64,000 nucleotides of DNA, from NCBI GenBank assembly GCA_963704305.1, contig OY969888.1:3627247-3691246 (forward strand), given 5' to 3'. The notes under the pieces are model-generated. The model was not told the DNA's origin. It saw only the letters and a program-made list of their open reading frames with translations, and did not search any database. This document shows, piece after piece, positions 1 to 16,702 of the stretch (positions are counted from its first letter, which is position 1; every line of letters starts with the position of its first letter). The translations under genes and the position numbers were made by a program. The stretch is from an uncultured Bacteroidota bacterium (lineage in GTDB: Bacteria > Bacteroidota > Ignavibacteria > Kryptoniales > JAKASW01).

Positions 1-691
1 CGAAGCGTCGAAATTGTTAGGCAGGGTCTCAAAACAGTTGAGTCTTGTCACCGCACCGTATCTCGGTGGTGCAATTTTGACGAAGGTCGAATTGGTATCG
101 TTAAACTCATCTAAAGTATTGGTCGTGATTTCTGTGGAAACAGGTTTGATAAAGACGATCGTGTTGGAGGTGCAATCTGAAGTGAACCCACAGAGATTGG
201 CGAAGATCAATTCTCTGCTCAACGAACGTCTGGCCGGATTAAAGCTGTCTCAGATTCGCGAAAGCATTCTTGAGCGCGTGGGCGATTACTCGGGTGAGGA
301 TGTGATAAACCGATTTGCTATCATGAGCGAAAGAATCTTCTCACCCTTGCCAGACATCGACAGAGTGCACATCGGCATGCCGGAAGGGATCCTTTCGCAC
401 CCGGAGTTCGTGTTGCCAGAGAACCTCAAGGGAATCCTGGAGATACTTGGCGATGAGAACGTCATCCTTCACGTGCTGGAGAAGAGTGACAGCGAGCCGA
501 TATCGGTGAAAGTCGGATCAGAGAACGACGAGGAGAAGTTGAAAGATTACAGTCTTATATCTGCCCGTTATGAAGTTGGCGGCATCAAAGGGACTGTTGG
601 TGTAATCGGTCCGCGGCGGATGCAATATTCGAGGCTCATACCTCTCGTCGATTTTGTTTCAAAGATTATTTCGAACAAATTAAGCTCGTGA
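1..691 (+). CDS. hrcA: Heat-inducible transcription repressor HrcA (5' end lies outside the window)
   Basis: C-terminal HrcA motifs (PEF; VKVGSEN; GTVGVIGPRRMQYS); directly upstream of grpE-dnaJ. Confidence 0.93.
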   Translation, partial: EASKLLGRVSKQLSLVTAPYLGGAILTKVELVSLNSSKVLVVISVETGLIKTIVLEVQSEVNPQRLAKINSLLNERLAGLKLSQIRESILERVGDYSGEDVINRFAIMSERIFSPLPDIDRVHIGMPEGILSHPEFVLPENLKGILEILGDENVILHVLEKSDSEPISVKVGSENDEEKLKDYSLISARYEVGGIKGTVGVIGPRRMQYSRLIPLVDFVSKIISNKLSS

Positions 692-8210: not shown

Positions 8211-11017
8211 CCTTTCTCCAGCACGTTCTTAAGCACAGACCCGGTACTTGATCCTCTCGCCTTAACAATCTCTTCCGGAGTCCCGGCAGCAACTACCTTT
8301 CCACCTTCCTCGCCTGCATCCGGACCAAGATCAATCACGTAGTCTGCGCACTTAATAACATCGAGGTTGTGCTCAACAACGATGATGCTGTTTCCTCTGT
8401 CTCGAAGATCGAACAATACCTGCATGAGCTTGGCTATTTCTTCAAAGTGTAGACCTGTCGTGGGTTCATCGAGAATGAATAAGACTTCCGTTTCACTGCT
8501 GGTTGACAGATAATTCGAAATCTTGAGACGCTGTGCCTCGCCGCCTGACAGCGTTGACAGTCTTTGTCCGAGTTTCAGGTAAGCAAGCCCCACACGGTCG
8601 AGAAGATTTAGCGATCTCACAACCTCTTTGTTGTCGCTGAAGAGCTCCAGCGCTTCGGCAACGGTTAGGTCCAGGACTTCGGCTATGTTTTTTCCGCGGT
8701 ACTTAATCTCGAGCGCTTCAGAACTGTATCTTTTCCCATTGCAAACTTCGCAATCAAGGGTGACGTTGGCAAGAAACTGCATCTCGACGACCTGTATTCC
8801 CTCACCGTTGCATGCTTCACATCTGCCGCCCCACTCAACGTTAAAAGAGAAGTAGCTCGGAGACAGTCCTCTTTCTCTGGAAAGTGGGGTGCTGGCGAAA
8901 ATGCTTCTGATAGGATCGAATGCGCCGCTGTACGTCGCGACATTAGATCTCGATATTCTTCCGACAGCGCTCTGGTCGACAAGCTCGACGGATTGCGGCA
9001 GGTAGTCAAATGTTATCCCTTTTGCATGACTTGTTGAGATCTCGGCGTTTTCTCGCGAGCTCGCCACGGAGAGTTCAGCGAGATGGTCTTTGACGGCATC
9101 ATACAAAACATCATAGACCAGAGTGCTCTTCCCCGAACCGCTCACTCCGGTTATGCAGACAAAGGAATATAGTGGAATGTCCACATTCAAATTGAAAAGG
9201 TTATGCATCGTAGCTTCTTTGATGTGGATAAACTTGTCGACGGGCTTTCTTTTTGTGGGAATGGGAATTGTCCTTTCACCTCGCAAGTACTTGCCTGTCA
9301 AGGAGACTTTTGAGTTAAGCAATCCGTCAAAGGGTCCCTCATAAATTATCTGTCCGCCCAGCGTCCCTGATCCCGGACCGAGATCGATTATGTGATCAGC
9401 GCTTTTCATCGTCTCTGGGTCGTGCTCGACCACTATCACCGTGTTCTGGAAGGACTTCAGGTGCTTCAGGATTGAAACAAGTCTGTCAATATCCCGTGGA
9501 TGGAGGCCGATGCTCGGTTCATCGAGGACGTACGTGGTGGCAACCAATGTTGACGCCAGACTTGTCGATAGATTGACCCTCTGTGCTTCGCCACCTGACA
9601 GCGTTGAAGAAAGTCGATCTAAGGTCAGATATCCCAATCCAATTTGAAAAAGATAACCGACTCTCTTGCGAATTTCGTCAAGCACCTGAGTCGCGATCAG
9701 AGCGTTTTCTCCTTCGAGGTTTACCAATTCAAAGAACTTGTGAGCGCGTCCGACCGTCATGCCGACCGTGCTTGCGATATTCTGTCCGTCGACTTGTACA
9801 GCAAGCGCTTCCTGGCGCAATCGTGCTCCGTTGCAAGTCGGACATACAACGTAACCCCGGTATTTGTCGAGGAAGTATCTCACAGAAAAAGAATGAGATT
9901 TCTTCTCGAGCTGTTTAACAAATCCCCGCATACCCAGGAAAGTCTTATCACCTTCAACCAGAAATCTCCATTCGTCCGATGTCAGGTTGCTCACTGCCAC
10001 ATCGAGGCGAATCTTGCCGGAACTTGCTGCCTTGATTAGCGACCGACGATGCAAATCAAAGGCCGGTGCAGATATTAAGCTGACCCCTCCGTGAAGAATA
10101 CTGAGAAATGGATTAGTGATTGTCTTTTCCCAATCATAGCCCATAACTGTTCCGAATCCTTGGCAATCCGGACAGGCTCCGTAGGGATTGTTGAAAGAAA
10201 ACAATCTCGGTTCCGGCTCCAGATACGCTCTTCCACACTCTGAGCACTCGAATTTGTTGGAGTAACGCTTCATCATCTTACTATCGATGTCATAGACGAA
10301 AATGTTACCGGTGCCATTCAGGAATCCCTGCTCACATGCTTCGATCACTCTCTCGGCGTAGCCTTCGTTGCCAACCACTACTCTGTCTGCTAGAACCAAG
10401 AACTCGCCAGACGGGTCGAATTGATTCACGTTCGAGTCGATAATTAATCCGGGGGCGGTGAGATCAGCAAATCGGTAAAAGCCCCGCTTCTTCAGATCCG
10501 ATATGATTGCATCCGAGCTCTTACTCCTGATGTTGAAAAATATGTATAACTTTTTTCCGGGCGGCATATTACGGACTGCGCTTAAGATCAATTGCGGTGA
10601 GTACTTGACTACCGGGATGTGGCAATCGAGACAAACGACGGTGCCAGCCCTGCCGTAAAGCAGCCTGAGGTAGTCATAAATCTCTGTCATTGTCGCCACC
10701 GTAGAGCGCGGATTCCGCCTCAAGCGCCTCTGTTCAATTGCCACAGTTGGCGTAATACCGTGAACCGTGTCAAGATCCGGTTTTTCCATCCGCTCGAGAA
10801 ACTGTCTCACATAAGCCGAGAGGCTTTCTATGTACCTCCTTTGCCCTTCGGCGTAAATCGTGTCAAAGGCGAGGCTCGACTTGCCACTTCCGGACGGCCC
10901 GGTGATCACGGTGATCTGACCCTTCGGAATCTTGACAGTAATATTTTTTAAGTTGTGCGTCCGTACTCCTTCAAGGACGATGGATCCATCTACCGATACT
11001 TTTTTCGTTTCGCTCAT
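8201..11017 (-). CDS. uvrA: Excinuclease ABC subunit A
   Basis: Two Walker A motifs (GPSGSGKSS, GVSGSGKST), two LSGGEAQR signatures, LDEPSIGLH and LDEPTTGLH, CxxC zinc fingers. Confidence 0.95.
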   Translation of the reverse strand: MSETKKVSVDGSIVLEGVRTHNLKNITVKIPKGQITVITGPSGSGKSSLAFDTIYAEGQRRYIESLSAYVRQFLERMEKPDLDTVHGITPTVAIEQRRLRRNPRSTVATMTEIYDYLRLLYGRAGTVVCLDCHIPVVKYSPQLILSAVRNMPPGKKLYIFFNIRSKSSDAIISDLKKRGFYRFADLTAPGLIIDSNVNQFDPSGEFLVLADRVVVGNEGYAERVIEACEQGFLNGTGNIFVYDIDSKMMKRYSNKFECSECGRAYLEPEPRLFSFNNPYGACPDCQGFGTVMGYDWEKTITNPFLSILHGGVSLISAPAFDLHRRSLIKAASSGKIRLDVAVSNLTSDEWRFLVEGDKTFLGMRGFVKQLEKKSHSFSVRYFLDKYRGYVVCPTCNGARLRQEALAVQVDGQNIASTVGMTVGRAHKFFELVNLEGENALIATQVLDEIRKRVGYLFQIGLGYLTLDRLSSTLSGGEAQRVNLSTSLASTLVATTYVLDEPSIGLHPRDIDRLVSILKHLKSFQNTVIVVEHDPETMKSADHIIDLGPGSGTLGGQIIYEGPFDGLLNSKVSLTGKYLRGERTIPIPTKRKPVDKFIHIKEATMHNLFNLNVDIPLYSFVCITGVSGSGKSTLVYDVLYDAVKDHLAELSVASSRENAEISTSHAKGITFDYLPQSVELVDQSAVGRISRSNVATYSGAFDPIRSIFASTPLSRERGLSPSYFSFNVEWGGRCEACNGEGIQVVEMQFLANVTLDCEVCNGKRYSSEALEIKYRGKNIAEVLDLTVAEALELFSDNKEVVRSLNLLDRVGLAYLKLGQRLSTLSGGEAQRLKISNYLSTSSETEVLFILDEPTTGLHFEEIAKLMQVLFDLRDRGNSIIVVEHNLDVIKCADYVIDLGPDAGEEGGKVVAAGTPEEIVKARGSSTGSVLKNVLEKGQY

Positions 11018-12884: not shown

Positions 12885-14225
12885 ATGAAAGACAAGATCG
12901 CTGTCATCGACGACCATGCAGATTCGCTCGATCTTCTACGCGAAGCGCTTTCGCCAAACTATGACATTGAGACCTTCTCCGATCCCGTAATGGCTCTTCG
13001 GAGAATCAAGCAGGAGTCCTTCTCCGCTGTAGTCACGGATGTGAAAATGCCTGGTTTGAATGGCGTCGAGCTCATGCACATGATACTTGAGTCCGTGCCA
13101 ACTCTCCCGGTGATTCTCGTTACGGCGTTCGGAACACTTGACGCGGCAGCAAGCACTATCAAGAGCGGTGCTTTCGATTACATAAGCAAACCGCTGAACC
13201 TGAACGAGATAAGACTGGTAGTGTCGAACGCAGTGTCACACTTTCATGTCGCGAAGGAATCACAGCGCGTCAATTTGAGAAAGTCGGATGAGGCAGATGT
13301 TTCAAACGTTGTCGGGAAGAGCGAAGTCATGTTACGGGTCTTTAGGGTCATAGGTCGCGTCGCACCGACGAACTCAAGTGTGCTCATTCAAGGTGAAAGT
13401 GGTACGGGCAAGGAGATCGTGGCACGTTCCATTCACTTGAACAGCTTGCGTGCCGATAAGCCATTTGTGCCCATTAGTGTTGCTGCTATTCCGGAACAGC
13501 TTCTTGAGGCGGAACTCTTCGGACATGAGAAGGGAGCTTTCACCGGCGCACTGTTTGCCAGAGACGGATTGTTCACCGAAGCAGAAGGCGGCACTCTTTT
13601 TCTCGATGAAGTCGGCGAGATTCCGCTCCAGCTTCAGCCGAAGCTCTTGAGAGTTTTGCAGGAACATGAGGTCAGGAGGATTGGGAGCAGCGTATCGAGA
13701 ATTGTCGATGTTCGAATAATTGCGGCGACAAACCGCAACCTTGAAGAGCTTGTCCGAGATAAGGCTTTTCGCGAGGATCTTTTCTATAGATTGAGCGTGA
13801 TTCGCATCGAGCTTCCCCCGCTTAGAGAGAGGAAAGACGACATACCACTTCTGACCGATCACTTCATAGCCAAATATAATCGGTTGCACAATAAACAAGT
13901 TAAAGGACTATCCGGCGATCTACTCAGATACTTGTCCGGTTTCACCTGGCCGGGGAATGTCAGAGAGCTGGAGAATTTCATAGACAGAGGAGTCGCTCTA
14001 TCCACCGGTCCTATACTAACGTTGGAAGACGCCAACCTCACGACGATTCATCCCTTGGAGGTGTCATGGGTCGACAAACTTCCCGCTACCCTAAGTCTCG
14101 AAGAAATTGAAACTGAATATATAAAACATGTCCTCAAATCATGCAACAACAATTACGTCGATGCTGCAAAAGTCCTGAAGATAAACAAGAGCACTCTATA
14201 CAGAAAGCTTGGCAAACCGCAATGA
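12885..14225 (+). CDS. sigma54-dependent response regulator (NtrC/AtoC family)
   Basis: Receiver domain (DD...TDVKMP), GESGTGKE, ELFGHEKGAFTGA, LFLDE, WPGNVREL, Fis-type HTH. Confidence 0.95.
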   Translation: MKDKIAVIDDHADSLDLLREALSPNYDIETFSDPVMALRRIKQESFSAVVTDVKMPGLNGVELMHMILESVPTLPVILVTAFGTLDAAASTIKSGAFDYISKPLNLNEIRLVVSNAVSHFHVAKESQRVNLRKSDEADVSNVVGKSEVMLRVFRVIGRVAPTNSSVLIQGESGTGKEIVARSIHLNSLRADKPFVPISVAAIPEQLLEAELFGHEKGAFTGALFARDGLFTEAEGGTLFLDEVGEIPLQLQPKLLRVLQEHEVRRIGSSVSRIVDVRIIAATNRNLEELVRDKAFREDLFYRLSVIRIELPPLRERKDDIPLLTDHFIAKYNRLHNKQVKGLSGDLLRYLSGFTWPGNVRELENFIDRGVALSTGPILTLEDANLTTIHPLEVSWVDKLPATLSLEEIETEYIKHVLKSCNNNYVDAAKVLKINKSTLYRKLGKPQ

Positions 14226-15796
14226 TGAGACAGATGAGAACTTATTCGCTTTCAATGTTGATCATTCTCACGCTTCTGTTTCCGAATTTGGCTCGAGCAA
14301 GAGATACAAGGTCGCATCTGCTCTTGAGTCGAGAAATCAATTTCATGATCAAAAGGTCAAACACGCCAAGGACAATCAAAGCGATTGAGATTTATTCGCG
14401 CAAACATAACAAAGTCATTTTTCATTCCTATTCCGATCTCCTTCTTCGCCCGGCAAGCAACCTGAAGATCGTGACTTCTTCTTTTATTCTTCACAGCCTG
14501 GGAAGTAATTACATTTTCAGGACTCTGTTCAGCACGACAGGAACCCGGCAAGGTGGAACGGTTGACGGAGATCTCGTAATCACTGCGGCCGGAGATCCGA
14601 TAGTGGACCTAGCGGACATCGATTCAGCCGCAGGGATCATTTCGCAAAAGGGTGTCAAGACGATAGATGGCAACCTGATTGTCGACATTTCAAGATTCGA
14701 TTCGCTGCAGTGGGGATCAGGTTGGATGTGGGATGATGAGCCGGAATCATACGCGATGTTTATCAGTCCTGCCTGCCTCGATCACAATTCTATCGAGGTT
14801 TGCGTTTCGATTGATTCGACGACACACAAGCTTGTCGTTACAACTCAACCTAATACAGATTTCGTAAAAGTTGTCTGTACCGCCGTACAGGATACTGTTG
14901 ATAGTCTTTTCGTAACGAGAGTAATGATCAATGATGTGAATACGATCTTGGTCGAGGGTCGTTATCCTCCGCAACTGGAGCCTTCGACATACGAGTTTTC
15001 CGTGAGACATCCCGCAGAATATTTCGGGATAGTATTTAAGGAAATTCTTGAGAAACATGGTGTCGATTTGCGCGGCGATGTCGTCGTGAGATACCATCGC
15101 TCGACTTCAAACTCCAGCTCTGATCTATTCGCGCTCGAGCACTCTATCGACACTGTGATGACCTATACCAATAAGGTCTCGGACAACTTGGGTGCTGAGT
15201 GTCTCTTGAGACAAGTGCCAATGGCAGAAGAAGGTAAGGCTGGTGGCGCCGGGAACAGCATCGACCTTGAAAAGGGATTTCTGAAGGAGTGTGGAGTAGA
15301 TTCGACGGAATATTACATCGTTGACGGCTCCGGCTTGTCTCACTACGATCTGATAACTCCCGAGGCGATCGTCAAAATCCTGAATTATGATCTCGATCAG
15401 CGGACGAAGAATCTCTTCATGAAGACTCTGCCGATTGCGGGAGTTGATGGCACACTTAAGAGAAGAATGGAAGAGAATTTCCTGGTTGGAAGAGTCATAG
15501 CTAAGACCGGGTCAATCAGCGGAGTGAGCACGCTATCAGGTTATGTAATCGTGCCGAGAGATACTCTCATCTTTTCTATGATGATGCAGAATTTCATCGG
15601 GGATACAGATTCGATGCGCTCTTTGCAGGACAGCGTTTGCAGTGTCCTTGCGCTGTATGATGACAATGCAAAAGTCTTCACCCGGCACTTGAAAAAGCAT
15701 GACGTTGGAACTTACGGAGAGGCGAGACATAGGAGAGGTCGTCACATTATGGAAGCTAACTTTCGCAGAGCGAAGAAGAAGTCTTCGACCGATTGA
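14222..15796 (+). CDS. dacB: D-alanyl-D-alanine carboxypeptidase/endopeptidase (peptidase S13, PBP4)
   Basis: PASNLK (SxxK), SDN (SxN), DGSGLS, KTG; start placed at ATG 14222, which overlaps the NtrC stop and precedes a signal peptide. Confidence 0.9.
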   Translation: MMRQMRTYSLSMLIILTLLFPNLARARDTRSHLLLSREINFMIKRSNTPRTIKAIEIYSRKHNKVIFHSYSDLLLRPASNLKIVTSSFILHSLGSNYIFRTLFSTTGTRQGGTVDGDLVITAAGDPIVDLADIDSAAGIISQKGVKTIDGNLIVDISRFDSLQWGSGWMWDDEPESYAMFISPACLDHNSIEVCVSIDSTTHKLVVTTQPNTDFVKVVCTAVQDTVDSLFVTRVMINDVNTILVEGRYPPQLEPSTYEFSVRHPAEYFGIVFKEILEKHGVDLRGDVVVRYHRSTSNSSSDLFALEHSIDTVMTYTNKVSDNLGAECLLRQVPMAEEGKAGGAGNSIDLEKGFLKECGVDSTEYYIVDGSGLSHYDLITPEAIVKILNYDLDQRTKNLFMKTLPIAGVDGTLKRRMEENFLVGRVIAKTGSISGVSTLSGYVIVPRDTLIFSMMMQNFIGDTDSMRSLQDSVCSVLALYDDNAKVFTRHLKKHDVGTYGEARHRRGRHIMEANFRRAKKKSSTD

Positions 15797-15851: not shown

Positions 15852-15873
15852 AATGGACAAGGTCGTTGAATAT

Positions 15874-15948
15874 GCTGGCGTAGCTCAGCTTGGTTAGAGC
15901 ACTTGACTGTGGATCAAGGGGTCGACGGTTCGAGTCCGTCCGCCAGTA
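15874..15948 (+). tRNA. tRNA-His(GTG); CCA not encoded; no genomic G-1
   Basis: Full cloverleaf: acceptor GCTGGCG/CGCCAGT, D stem GCTC/GAGC, anticodon stem CTTGA/TCAAG with loop CT-GTG-GA, T stem GACGG/CCGTC with loop TTCGAGT, discriminator A. Confidence 0.96.
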
Positions 15949-15979
15949 CGAAAACTTGAACATTCGGGAGGCTGCGCAA

Positions 15980-16702
15980 ATGGAAACGGTTCAGGATAAG
16001 GCACAGGAATTTGTCATCCGGTTTGTCGGCGTTGCCGGAGTGAGCATTGCACTCGGCATCGCGATCTTCGGTCGTCGAGTATTTGTCATAACGGCTGCTC
16101 CGTTCCAATTCGTACAAAGTGGAGTGACCGCAGGATTGTTCTATGCATCGCTCAAGAACCTAACTTCCATCAAAAACAGCATCGCCGCACTCTTCGTGTG
16201 GTATGTTCTCCTGTTGACTCTTCTTGTGAAATTCAACACATGGCTTCCGATTCTTGACCTGGCATACCTCGGGGGCATTGCCGCCGCAATTTATCTTTGC
16301 AAGTATGTTGTCGACAAGGGGCTGATTCACGGAATTGTCCAGAGGCTTGCGACATCCATCGTGTTTCTTGGTCTTGCTAACGTCTTAATCATCGTCCTTC
16401 TGTCAACTATCCAATTCATATTCTACCACCATGCCAGGCAAGTCTCCATATTTTTCTCAGAGCTTCCTCTGAGAATTCGCGCTAACCTGATAATCGGTTG
16501 CGCGATTGGTTTTGGTGCTGGAGTTGGAATCGAGATTGTGGAATACTATTTCGACCGGCGGCATCGCCAGGATGAAGCGGTGACCACTGGAGGGCCTATC
16601 GTCAGGTGTGCATCATGCAGGCAGGAGCTCGAGCTGGAAGAAACTGAAATAGAACTTGGTGAATACACTTGCCCGGAGTGCGGCAACATGGGAAAGCTAT
16701 AA
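15980..16702 (+). CDS. Polytopic membrane protein with C-terminal zinc ribbon
   Basis: GGGAGG RBS before ATG 15980; about 6 hydrophobic segments; C-terminal CASC...CPEC. Confidence 0.7.
   Translation: METVQDKAQEFVIRFVGVAGVSIALGIAIFGRRVFVITAAPFQFVQSGVTAGLFYASLKNLTSIKNSIAALFVWYVLLLTLLVKFNTWLPILDLAYLGGIAAAIYLCKYVVDKGLIHGIVQRLATSIVFLGLANVLIIVLLSTIQFIFYHHARQVSIFFSELPLRIRANLIIGCAIGFGAGVGIEIVEYYFDRRHRQDEAVTTGGPIVRCASCRQELELEETEIELGEYTCPECGNMGKL

Follow-up and report, generated by a model that had tools for sequence, protein, structure and literature searches.

A Caulobacter-type tRNA-His without encoded G-1 and a matching histidyl-tRNA synthetase in a Kryptonia-like bacterium

The guanosine at position -1 (G-1) of tRNA-His is often called a nearly universal exception to tRNA architecture. 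In the canonical system of Escherichia coli and Thermus, G-1 is encoded and paired with C73, and the precursor is cut by ribonuclease P (RNase P) at -1. The Thg1 systems of eukaryotes and some archaea have A73 and an unencoded G-1 that is added post-transcriptionally by Thg1. Among bacteria, the loss of G-1 is described, in excerpts of four papers, as a trait of one alphaproteobacterial clade with a single origin (PMC3937112, PMC3245924, PMC9976931, PMC7590224). This 'RRCH' clade includes Caulobacter crescentus and covers the Rhizobiales, Rhodobacterales, Caulobacterales and most SAR11. The gene under study is a tRNA-His gene without encoded G-1 in the window, i.e., the whole 64,000-nucleotide stretch of contig OY969888.1 that was analysed, and it is considered together with the histidyl-tRNA synthetase (HisRS) gene, hisS, of the same genome (G000). 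Judged by its protein relatives, the host is not alphaproteobacterial and belongs to the Fibrobacteres-Chlorobi-Bacteroidetes (FCB) group, as a Kryptonia-like member. The window gene is very probably the sole functional tRNA-His gene of this genome, operating in a Caulobacter-type identity system without G-1, and the tRNA-HisRS pair was very probably acquired by horizontal transfer.

The G-1-less system has been characterized in alphaproteobacteria. In the sections of the Caulobacter study cited here, kinetics identified the anticodon, U72 and A73 as identity elements, and the addition of G-1 brought no gain (PMC3064791). According to excerpts of two papers, charging without G-1 is known only for the Caulobacter enzyme and two other alphaproteobacterial enzymes (PMC3064791, PMC7590224). 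A change of Gln123, which contacts G-1:C73, to Gly has been called unique to the RRCH clade (PMC3937112, in part). In the Caulobacter HisRS two Asp residues stand in place of Gly72-Gly73, as stated in a passage of PMC4357726, and passages of two further papers regard an insert in the anticodon-binding domain as what probably underlies anticodon discrimination (PMC3064791, PMC3245924).

The window gene was read on the plus strand at 15874-15948 as GCTGGCG-TA-GCTC-(10-nt D-loop)-GAGC-A-CTTGA-CTGTGGA-TCAAG-GGGTC-GACGG-TTCGAGT-CCGTC-CGCCAGT-A. The acceptor stem is formed by 15874-15880 (GCTGGCG) and 15941-15947 (CGCCAGT), with pairs from G1:T72 and C2:G71 through G7:C66, and the discriminator at 15948 is A. 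ARAGORN identified a tRNA-His with anticodon GTG at 15874-15949. The Rfam RF00005 match at 15874-15948 (68.7 bits, E 9e-15) had the identical acceptor stem and a perfect cloverleaf. The T at -1, the G1:U72 pair and A73 that a preliminary description of this DNA had reported were thus confirmed by the sequence, by ARAGORN and by the Rfam stem. An alternative register with G15874 as G-1 was ruled out; it places A at position 8, so that U8 is lost, and creates stem mismatches.

Two further features of Caulobacter-type tRNA-His were present, namely C2:G71 and a D-loop of at least 9 nucleotides with GGUUA and U20a. The gene therefore resembles the RRCH tRNA in having no encoded G-1, G1:U72, C2:G71, A73 and U20a, of which U20a is non-discriminating, as a canonical tRNA-His within the same phylum also has it. 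The amino acid, the anticodon and the class IIa enzyme family are shared with the canonical system, but G-1, C72 and C73 are absent. Over 81 G-1-less loci (not deduplicated), the base at -1 was T in 53, C in 25, G in 2 and A in 1, i.e., a pyrimidine in 78. All 47 tRNA genes of the genome have C74 and only 5 encode the full CCA, indicating that the conserved 'AC' end of tRNA-His is a genome-wide habit and not a histidine feature. A sigma-70 promoter scan upstream of the tRNA, which is blind to other promoter types, gave no match.

The genome is a single closed contig (C1) of 4,529,109 bases with 48.8% G+C and 100% completeness. ARAGORN detected 47 tRNAs and 1 one-piece transfer-messenger RNA (tmRNA) in the whole genome. 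Only one of the 47 is a tRNA-His, the window gene, which answers the question, raised in the preliminary description, of whether it is the only copy. With the hisS model TIGR00442, one gene was above the cut-off (match at C1:4305007-4306269, 393.8 bits). Three other matches at two other places of the genome were weak (24-29.5 bits, below the cut-off), and no second HisRS above the cut-off was found in the closed genome. The Pfam content of the enzyme, tRNA-synt_His plus HGTP_anticodon, is that of the class IIa family. One gene of the CCA-adding/poly(A) polymerase family is present. An encoded G-1:C73 tRNA-His plus a canonical HisRS, the mark of the canonical bacterial system, was not found in G000. 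The preliminary description had named a second, canonical tRNA-His with a canonical HisRS, or a chimeric genome, as grounds against its interpretation; both were looked for and neither occurred. The window tRNA appears to be real and, in all likelihood, functional.

To place the enzyme, the best 150 matches from an HMMER scan of 1.84 billion representatives were joined with the sequences of relatives and of named genomes. All HisRS enzymes from genomes with a G-1-less tRNA-His fell into one clade. This clade held 47 of 161 rows with FastTree (support 100), 67 of 98 rows in a quick IQ-TREE analysis (98 in the SH-like approximate likelihood ratio test, SH-aLRT) and 33 of 51 rows in a careful one (99/99). 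In the 98-row tree, the tRNA type changed once over 48 typed rows; L204, with an adjacent tRNA that fits neither type, was left out of this count, as were L147, L205 and L217, where no tRNA was found.

Among the matches listed, the clade included a 'Bacteroidetes bacterium' and Acidobacteriota from the Bryobacterales, Thermoanaerobaculia, Vicinamibacteria, Blastocatellia and an unclassified Acidobacteria bacterium. Cluster mates of clade representatives were labelled Zixibacteria, Planctomycetes, Phycisphaerales, Candidatus Uabimicrobium amorphum, Candidatus Lernaella stagnicola and Parvibaculales. The alphaproteobacterial enzymes formed a nested clade (100/99) with Rhodobacter, Shimia, Caulobacteraceae, Phenylobacterium, Hyphomonadaceae, Hyphomicrobium, Methyloligella and Alsobacter, and this anchor was strengthened by named matches from Parvibaculum, Methyloligella, Lutibaculum and Hyphomicrobiaceae. 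The statement in the preliminary description that an alphaproteobacterial clade is the known exception is consequently too narrow, since the HisRS clade spans several phyla.

The families of the window's class are denoted f1 (the window's own), f2 (its sister family), f4, f11, f13 and f52. Within the clade, the enzymes of f13 and f52 fell in the alphaproteobacterial half (99/97) and the G000 HisRS in the opposite half, where resolution was poor, indicating that the class received a HisRS gene of this clade at least twice. Among the matches listed, the G000 enzyme was 36-42% identical to alphaproteobacterial ones. It was 36-55% identical to clade members of other families or phyla, compared with about 30% to the HisRS of sister family f2.

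These values bear on whether the lineage could have evolved G-1 independence from its own ancestral HisRS. In favor of this is a 2017 paper, excerpts of which relay that a later phylogenetic study gave no support for a eukaryotic donor of the alphaproteobacterial enzyme and suggest convergence with eukaryotes (PMC5370408). For G000, convergence is extremely improbable, given the higher identity to foreign clade members than to the sister family, the 99/99 support of the clade and three shared derived features. Of the earlier proposal that the pair was independently acquired, acquisition held, but independent invention did not, because the HisRS lies in the clade of the alphaproteobacterial enzymes.

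Against solved structures, the G000 HisRS scored best with 6nhi (238 bits). The next eight HisRS chain sets scored 172-198 bits (3net; 4g84, 4phc, 4g85 and 5w6m, labelled 'cytoplasmic'; 1wu7; 3hrk and 3hri), and only 113-130 bits were obtained against 1qe0, 1kmm/1htt/2el9, 4rdx and 1adj. Of these, 4RDX is the Thermus HisRS-tRNA complex (PMC4357726, in part). Non-canonical HisRS enzymes that do without G-1 are likewise described in parts of the literature on Trypanosoma brucei and Acanthamoeba castellanii (PMC4338351, PMC9976931). Unlike the host of the window, both are eukaryotes, and the trypanosomatid structures 3hrk and 3hri scored below the human structures.

Three marks are common to the G000 HisRS and the alphaproteobacterial enzymes: a motif-2 loop without Gln, acidic residues instead of Gly-Gly in the G-1 pocket, and an insert in the anticodon-binding domain. 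These are the features that the literature ties to G-1-independent charging, which at the level of sequence suggests the same capacity here. In the motif-2 loop, Asp stands in the place of Gln. The insert was present in 67/67 clade rows and in 0/31 others of the 98-row alignment, and in searches against non-clade proteins the alignments of the G000 HisRS ended near residue 425-430. The nearest sister clade has also lost the Gly-Gly pocket and retains the motif-2 Gln, so that pocket loss alone does not define the clade. The tests of HisRS phylogeny and motif-2 loop recommended in the preliminary description both came out on the Caulobacter side (99/99; KPDP, no Gln).

The same residues bear on whether G-1 is added after transcription opposite A73, by Thg1 or an unrecognized enzyme, with a HisRS that still needs it, as the preliminary description had also considered. 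A73 is the eukaryotic discriminator, and bacterial Thg1-like proteins exist according to part of one paper (PMC3245924). However, neither Thg1 domain (PF04446, PF14413) had a match in the closed, 100%-complete genome, although the Methanosarcina control was positive. Furthermore, Gly-Gly pocket and motif-2 Gln are both missing from the HisRS, and the clade in which it falls includes enzymes that, in the Caulobacter study cited above, gained nothing from G-1 (PMC3064791). G-1 addition is thus very improbable, and the Thg1 proposal was not borne out. G000 differs from Thg1 systems in both respects, having no Thg1 gene and no G-1 pocket in its HisRS.

The distribution of the pair was followed in 39 genomes of the order, 27 from f1 (including G000) and 12 from f2. 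BLAST searches with the tRNA in the sister family mostly matched tRNA-Pro, tRNA-Thr and tRNA-Met, and IUPAC patterns were used instead. A tRNA-His was read in 22/27 f1 genomes, and all 22 had GCTGGCG...CGCCAGT-A-C with T or C at -1. One HisRS match was obtained in each of the 27 f1 genomes, 60-100% identical to the G000 enzyme, the 60% case being a partial gene at a contig end. In the sister family, 8/8 tRNA-His loci read g-GTGAGTA...TACTCAC-C, i.e., G-1, G1:C72 and C73, and the f2 HisRS was 29-38% identical to the G000 enzyme over partial matches (10/12 genomes at E<=1e-20). The survey of positions -1, 72 and 73 in relatives that had been called for thus gave a uniform answer on each side, and the switch in histidine identity, as read from these genes, falls between two families of one order.

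The recurrence of the pair in 22 f1 genomes also argues against an artefact, be it assembly chimerism, contig contamination or a pseudogene taken for the tRNA-His gene while the true one escaped detection. Most related genomes are metagenome-assembled genomes (MAGs), and one gammaproteobacterial MAG seems to contain a contaminating alphaproteobacterial pair. However, the 4.53 Mb of G000 form one contig, synteny of the upstream gene holds in 12/16 f1 loci, and the tRNA, at 68.7 bits, has a perfect cloverleaf. The probability of an artefact is therefore practically negligible.

In a class sample of 401 genomes from 176 genera, clade-type HisRS (E<=1e-60) was found in 47, including G000, and the other 354 were without it. 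The carriers, patchily spread over the class, were 27 genomes of f1, 13/14 of f4, 1/1 of f11, 5/23 of f13 and 1/23 of f52. Identity to the G000 HisRS was 52-55% in f4 and 42-44% in f13 and f52. A tRNA-His was found in 19/20 carriers outside f1, and all 19 ended G71-U72-A73, with T (12), C (6) or G (1) at -1. In other members of f13, tRNA-His ended ...CACC. Five class genomes missed by the first pattern proved canonical on further search. The sole f4 genome of 14 without clade HisRS, G075 (L250), also gave no tRNA-His by any pattern; its best HisRS match, partial and 31% identical, was a 347-aa frame containing an in-frame TGA. In a phylum sample of 301 genomes, 249 matched the general tRNA-His pattern. 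The U72-A73 pattern matched 10/301, all in the window's class (74 sampled), and 0/227 genomes of other classes. All 30 tRNA-His loci read from other classes of the phylum had G at -1 and C73.

As an independent check, among the matches listed, tRNA-His ended ...GTA in 15/17 named genomes with clade-type HisRS (no match in 2) and had C73 in 11/13 with sister-type HisRS (no match in 2). In six more clade-type genomes among the matches listed, the G-1-less type was read from the hisS flanks. In typed genomes, the tRNA type tracks the HisRS type without exception, in 35 G-1-less and 13 canonical rows.

Two MAGs carried unusual combinations. In a Lutibacter MAG, a sister-type hisS is followed 90 nucleotides downstream by a tRNA-His (L204:11386-11462 = L222, G655:C33) with C73. 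The gene for this tRNA encodes the CCA end, but the base at -1 is T, which means that G-1 is not encoded. A canonical tRNA-His is also present in this MAG (G655), on a different contig (L247). A third kind of histidine identity and a foreign contig in the bin are both possible explanations. The gammaproteobacterial Luminiphilus MAG G633 combines an alphaproteobacterial-type HisRS (L168), placed beside Rhodobacter by the tree, with a G-1-less tRNA-His (L245); the contigs concerned measure 8.6 kb and 2.4 kb. The pair probably stems from bin contamination and not from transfer.

The unit and direction of transfer may be indicated by gene linkage in other genomes. In at least 10 genomes, a G-1-less tRNA-His lies 3-135 nucleotides upstream of hisS on the same strand. 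One Thermoanaerobaculia MAG (L145) has two tandem G-1-less tRNA-His copies, at 9558-9634 and 9808-9884, upstream of hisS. G567 has the two genes in head-to-head orientation, G619 has them 1.4 kb apart, and seven more carriers have both on one contig at a distance of 3-34 kb. Many non-alphaproteobacterial carriers thus differ from the RRCH clade in having tRNA-His directly upstream of hisS; at the alphaproteobacterial loci examined, no tRNA-His was found within 10 kb of hisS save one at 8 kb (L157). A phage vector was not indicated, as 0/56 viral-contig loci encoding a HisRS relative had a G-1-less tRNA-His within 3 kb. The sole tRNA-His at those viral loci (L290:6297-6369, minus strand) comes from the contig of a giant-virus MAG and is situated some 2 kb downstream of the HisRS relative.

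Alternatively, the HisRS alone may have been transferred, with the resident canonical tRNA-His mutated in place by loss of G-1, C72 to U and C73 to A, as was proposed for alphaproteobacteria. This is unlikely but has several points in its favor. In G000 and in all closed or large-contig relatives the two genes are far apart (77-650 kb and more in the f1 relatives), the tRNA trees are weak, and an analysis cited in one paper concluded that the tRNA of alphaproteobacteria is descended from a gene of their own ancestor (PMC3064791). It is opposed by the tRNA-hisS cassette, which occurs in at least two phyla, and by the acceptor stems, which are identical across phyla: GCTGGCG/CGCCAGT is common to f1, five f4 genomes and a Bryobacterales MAG. 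The core of the f1 tRNA (positions 8-65) is also nearer to foreign G-1-less tRNAs than to that of f2. It was 82.7% identical to G-1-less tRNAs elsewhere in the class, 82.0% to those of Acidobacteriota and unclassified genomes and 77.2% to alphaproteobacterial ones, compared with 72.0% to the canonical tRNA-His of f2. Finally, the tRNA-His locus in f1 differs from that in f2, and the G000 counterparts of the genes that flank the f2 tRNA-His lie at 4.05 Mb and 2.28 Mb, neither of which has a tRNA. As an empty-site test for the old tRNA-His, this mapping is suggestive only. Although the tRNA evidence is thin, co-transfer of tRNA and enzyme would be clearly favored over conversion in place. Canonical and Caulobacter-type histidine systems are reported to be mutually orthogonal in parts of two papers (PMC3064791, PMC3875453), and a two-gene cassette may therefore be expected to be capable of taking hold in a foreign genome.

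The proposed mechanism follows, by homology, the work on Caulobacter (PMC3064791) and on Consotaella and Afifella (PMC7590224), as far as excerpts of these papers describe it. With a pyrimidine at -1, which can neither pair with A73 nor extend the stem, the precursor would be cut by RNase P at the usual +1 position. No G-1 would be added, and the mature tRNA would start at G1; the CCA end would be finished enzymatically. The single HisRS would charge this tRNA by ignoring G-1 and reading G1:U72/A73 and the GUG anticodon, the weight of which may differ between enzymes. An f1 ancestor would have gained the enzyme, and probably the tRNA gene too, from a multi-phylum pool of such pairs. The acquired pair would then have displaced the canonical G-1:C73 tRNA and the canonical HisRS, which f2 still keeps.

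Several points weigh against the acquisition of a functional G-1-less pair. The function of the f1 enzyme is assigned by analogy, because the assayed members are all alphaproteobacterial, and the pocket and loop residues of the G000 HisRS (Pro-Glu-Glu and Asp) are unlike those of Caulobacter (Asp-Asp and Gly); the RRCH pocket reads Asp-Asp-Glu. The tRNA-His and hisS genes are unlinked in G000, so that co-transfer of the tRNA is judged from other lineages. The tRNA comparisons span about 58 columns, and the tRNA type changed 3 times in the tRNA tree without the acceptor stem, compared with once in the full tree. The tRNA patterns demand AGAGC or a T-loop with GTTCRA and may overlook variants; the pattern search gave no tRNA-His in 5/27 f1 genomes (G032, G004, G034, G015, G016), nor in G505, G075, G629, G642 and G654, all of which were left untyped. 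The named-genome sample was arbitrary and comprised the best 80 of at least 600 stretches. Lastly, the taxon names are depositor labels on related proteins and not the genome's own record.

Proteins 66-81% identical to the HisRS were assigned, where they had such labels, to Candidatus Kryptonia, Kryptoniota or Bacteroidetes, and one to Candidatus Acidoferrales, in agreement with the earlier view that the genome is of the FCB group and not alphaproteobacterial. The next tier (52-55% identity) carried Ignavibacteria, Ignavibacteriae, Bacteroidota, Acidobacteriota or Sphingobacteriales labels. Alphaproteobacteria have a two-piece tmRNA. The one-piece tmRNA of G000 is located at C1:3800846-3801266 on the minus strand, with the tag ANYNYALAA.

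The carboxypeptidase gene upstream of the tRNA (Table 1) is the neighbor syntenic with tRNA-His in the f1 loci mentioned above. Further upstream are genes for a histidine kinase and a sigma-54 response regulator. No mobile-element genes adjoin the tRNA-His.

Table 1. Features of the tRNA-His locus, the genes serving it and the diagnostic HisRS regions. Positions without a contig name refer to the window; aa, amino acids; ORF, open reading frame.
Feature	Position	Strand	Remarks
tRNA-His(GUG), G-1-less type	15874..15948	+	G1:U72, C2:G71, A73; anticodon 15909-15911; 10-nt D-loop with U20a
Position -1 = T, no G-1 encoded	15873	+	expected RNase P cut between 15873 and 15874
Encoded C74	15949	+	remainder of CCA not encoded, must be added
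HisRS gene (sole)	G000:C1:4304989-4306383		465 aa; outside the window, 660 kb from tRNA-His
RNase P RNA type A	G000:C1:3805544-3805957		244.6 bits
HisRS motif-2 loop			f1 KPDP-GRFREF; alphaproteobacteria KPGP; f2 RPQA-GRLRQFHQ; outside clade KPQK, RPQR and similar
HisRS G-1 pocket (Gly72-Gly73 in Thermus)			f1 PEEQ; f4 PEEE; Acidobacteriota PEGE or PEKE; alphaproteobacteria DDEQ
HisRS G-1 pocket outside clade			f2 KGGT; most other outside rows xGGR
HisRS anticodon-binding-domain insert, ~20 residues	G000 HisRS residues ~434-452		EAMSKDASQREEWLKKSREIQ; present in f1 and alphaproteobacteria, absent outside
Cassette carriers, class sample			G266 (f4), G127 (f11), G389 (f52)
Cassette carriers, others			L142 'Bacteroidetes bacterium'; L143, L144, L145, L146 Acidobacteriota; L154 Blastocatellia; L155 uncultured
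D-Ala-D-Ala carboxypeptidase (Peptidase_S13)	14141..15796	+	upstream neighbor of tRNA-His
240-aa ORF, no Pfam family	15980..16702	+	downstream of tRNA-His; not part of the system

This is a known kind of tRNA-His in a host for which the literature found does not describe that kind. A 2023 identity review names, in the part cited, among bacteria only 'some groups of alpha-Proteobacteria' (PMC9976931). A full-text literature search gave no report of the pair outside alphaproteobacteria and their phages; founding papers or those in subscription journals may mention others.

Taken more broadly, the G-1-less pair may be a mobile, self-sufficient, orthogonal tRNA-hisS cassette. In this model, which is held to be somewhat more probable than its negation, the cassette would have replaced the canonical set repeatedly, at least twice and probably 3 times in one Bacteroidota class, in several Acidobacteriota classes and, by HisRS alone, in Planctomycetota, Zixibacteria and Candidatus Lernaella. 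The alphaproteobacterial pair would then be a derived branch from a bacterial pool and would not come from a eukaryote.

The finding bears on the origin of the alphaproteobacterial enzyme, for which a eukaryotic donor and convergence have been discussed, in that the alphaproteobacterial branch nests among bacterial sequences. The cassette suggests how an identity rule may cross phyla, with enzyme and tRNA moving together. If both move together, an incoming pair could displace the rule of the host because it does not depend on that rule. The loss of G-1 is not usable as an alphaproteobacterial synapomorphy without checking for transfer, and tRNA-His gene models that expect G-1 mis-describe such genomes. 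The clade also offers many natural candidates for orthogonal HisRS/tRNA pairs in genetic-code engineering.

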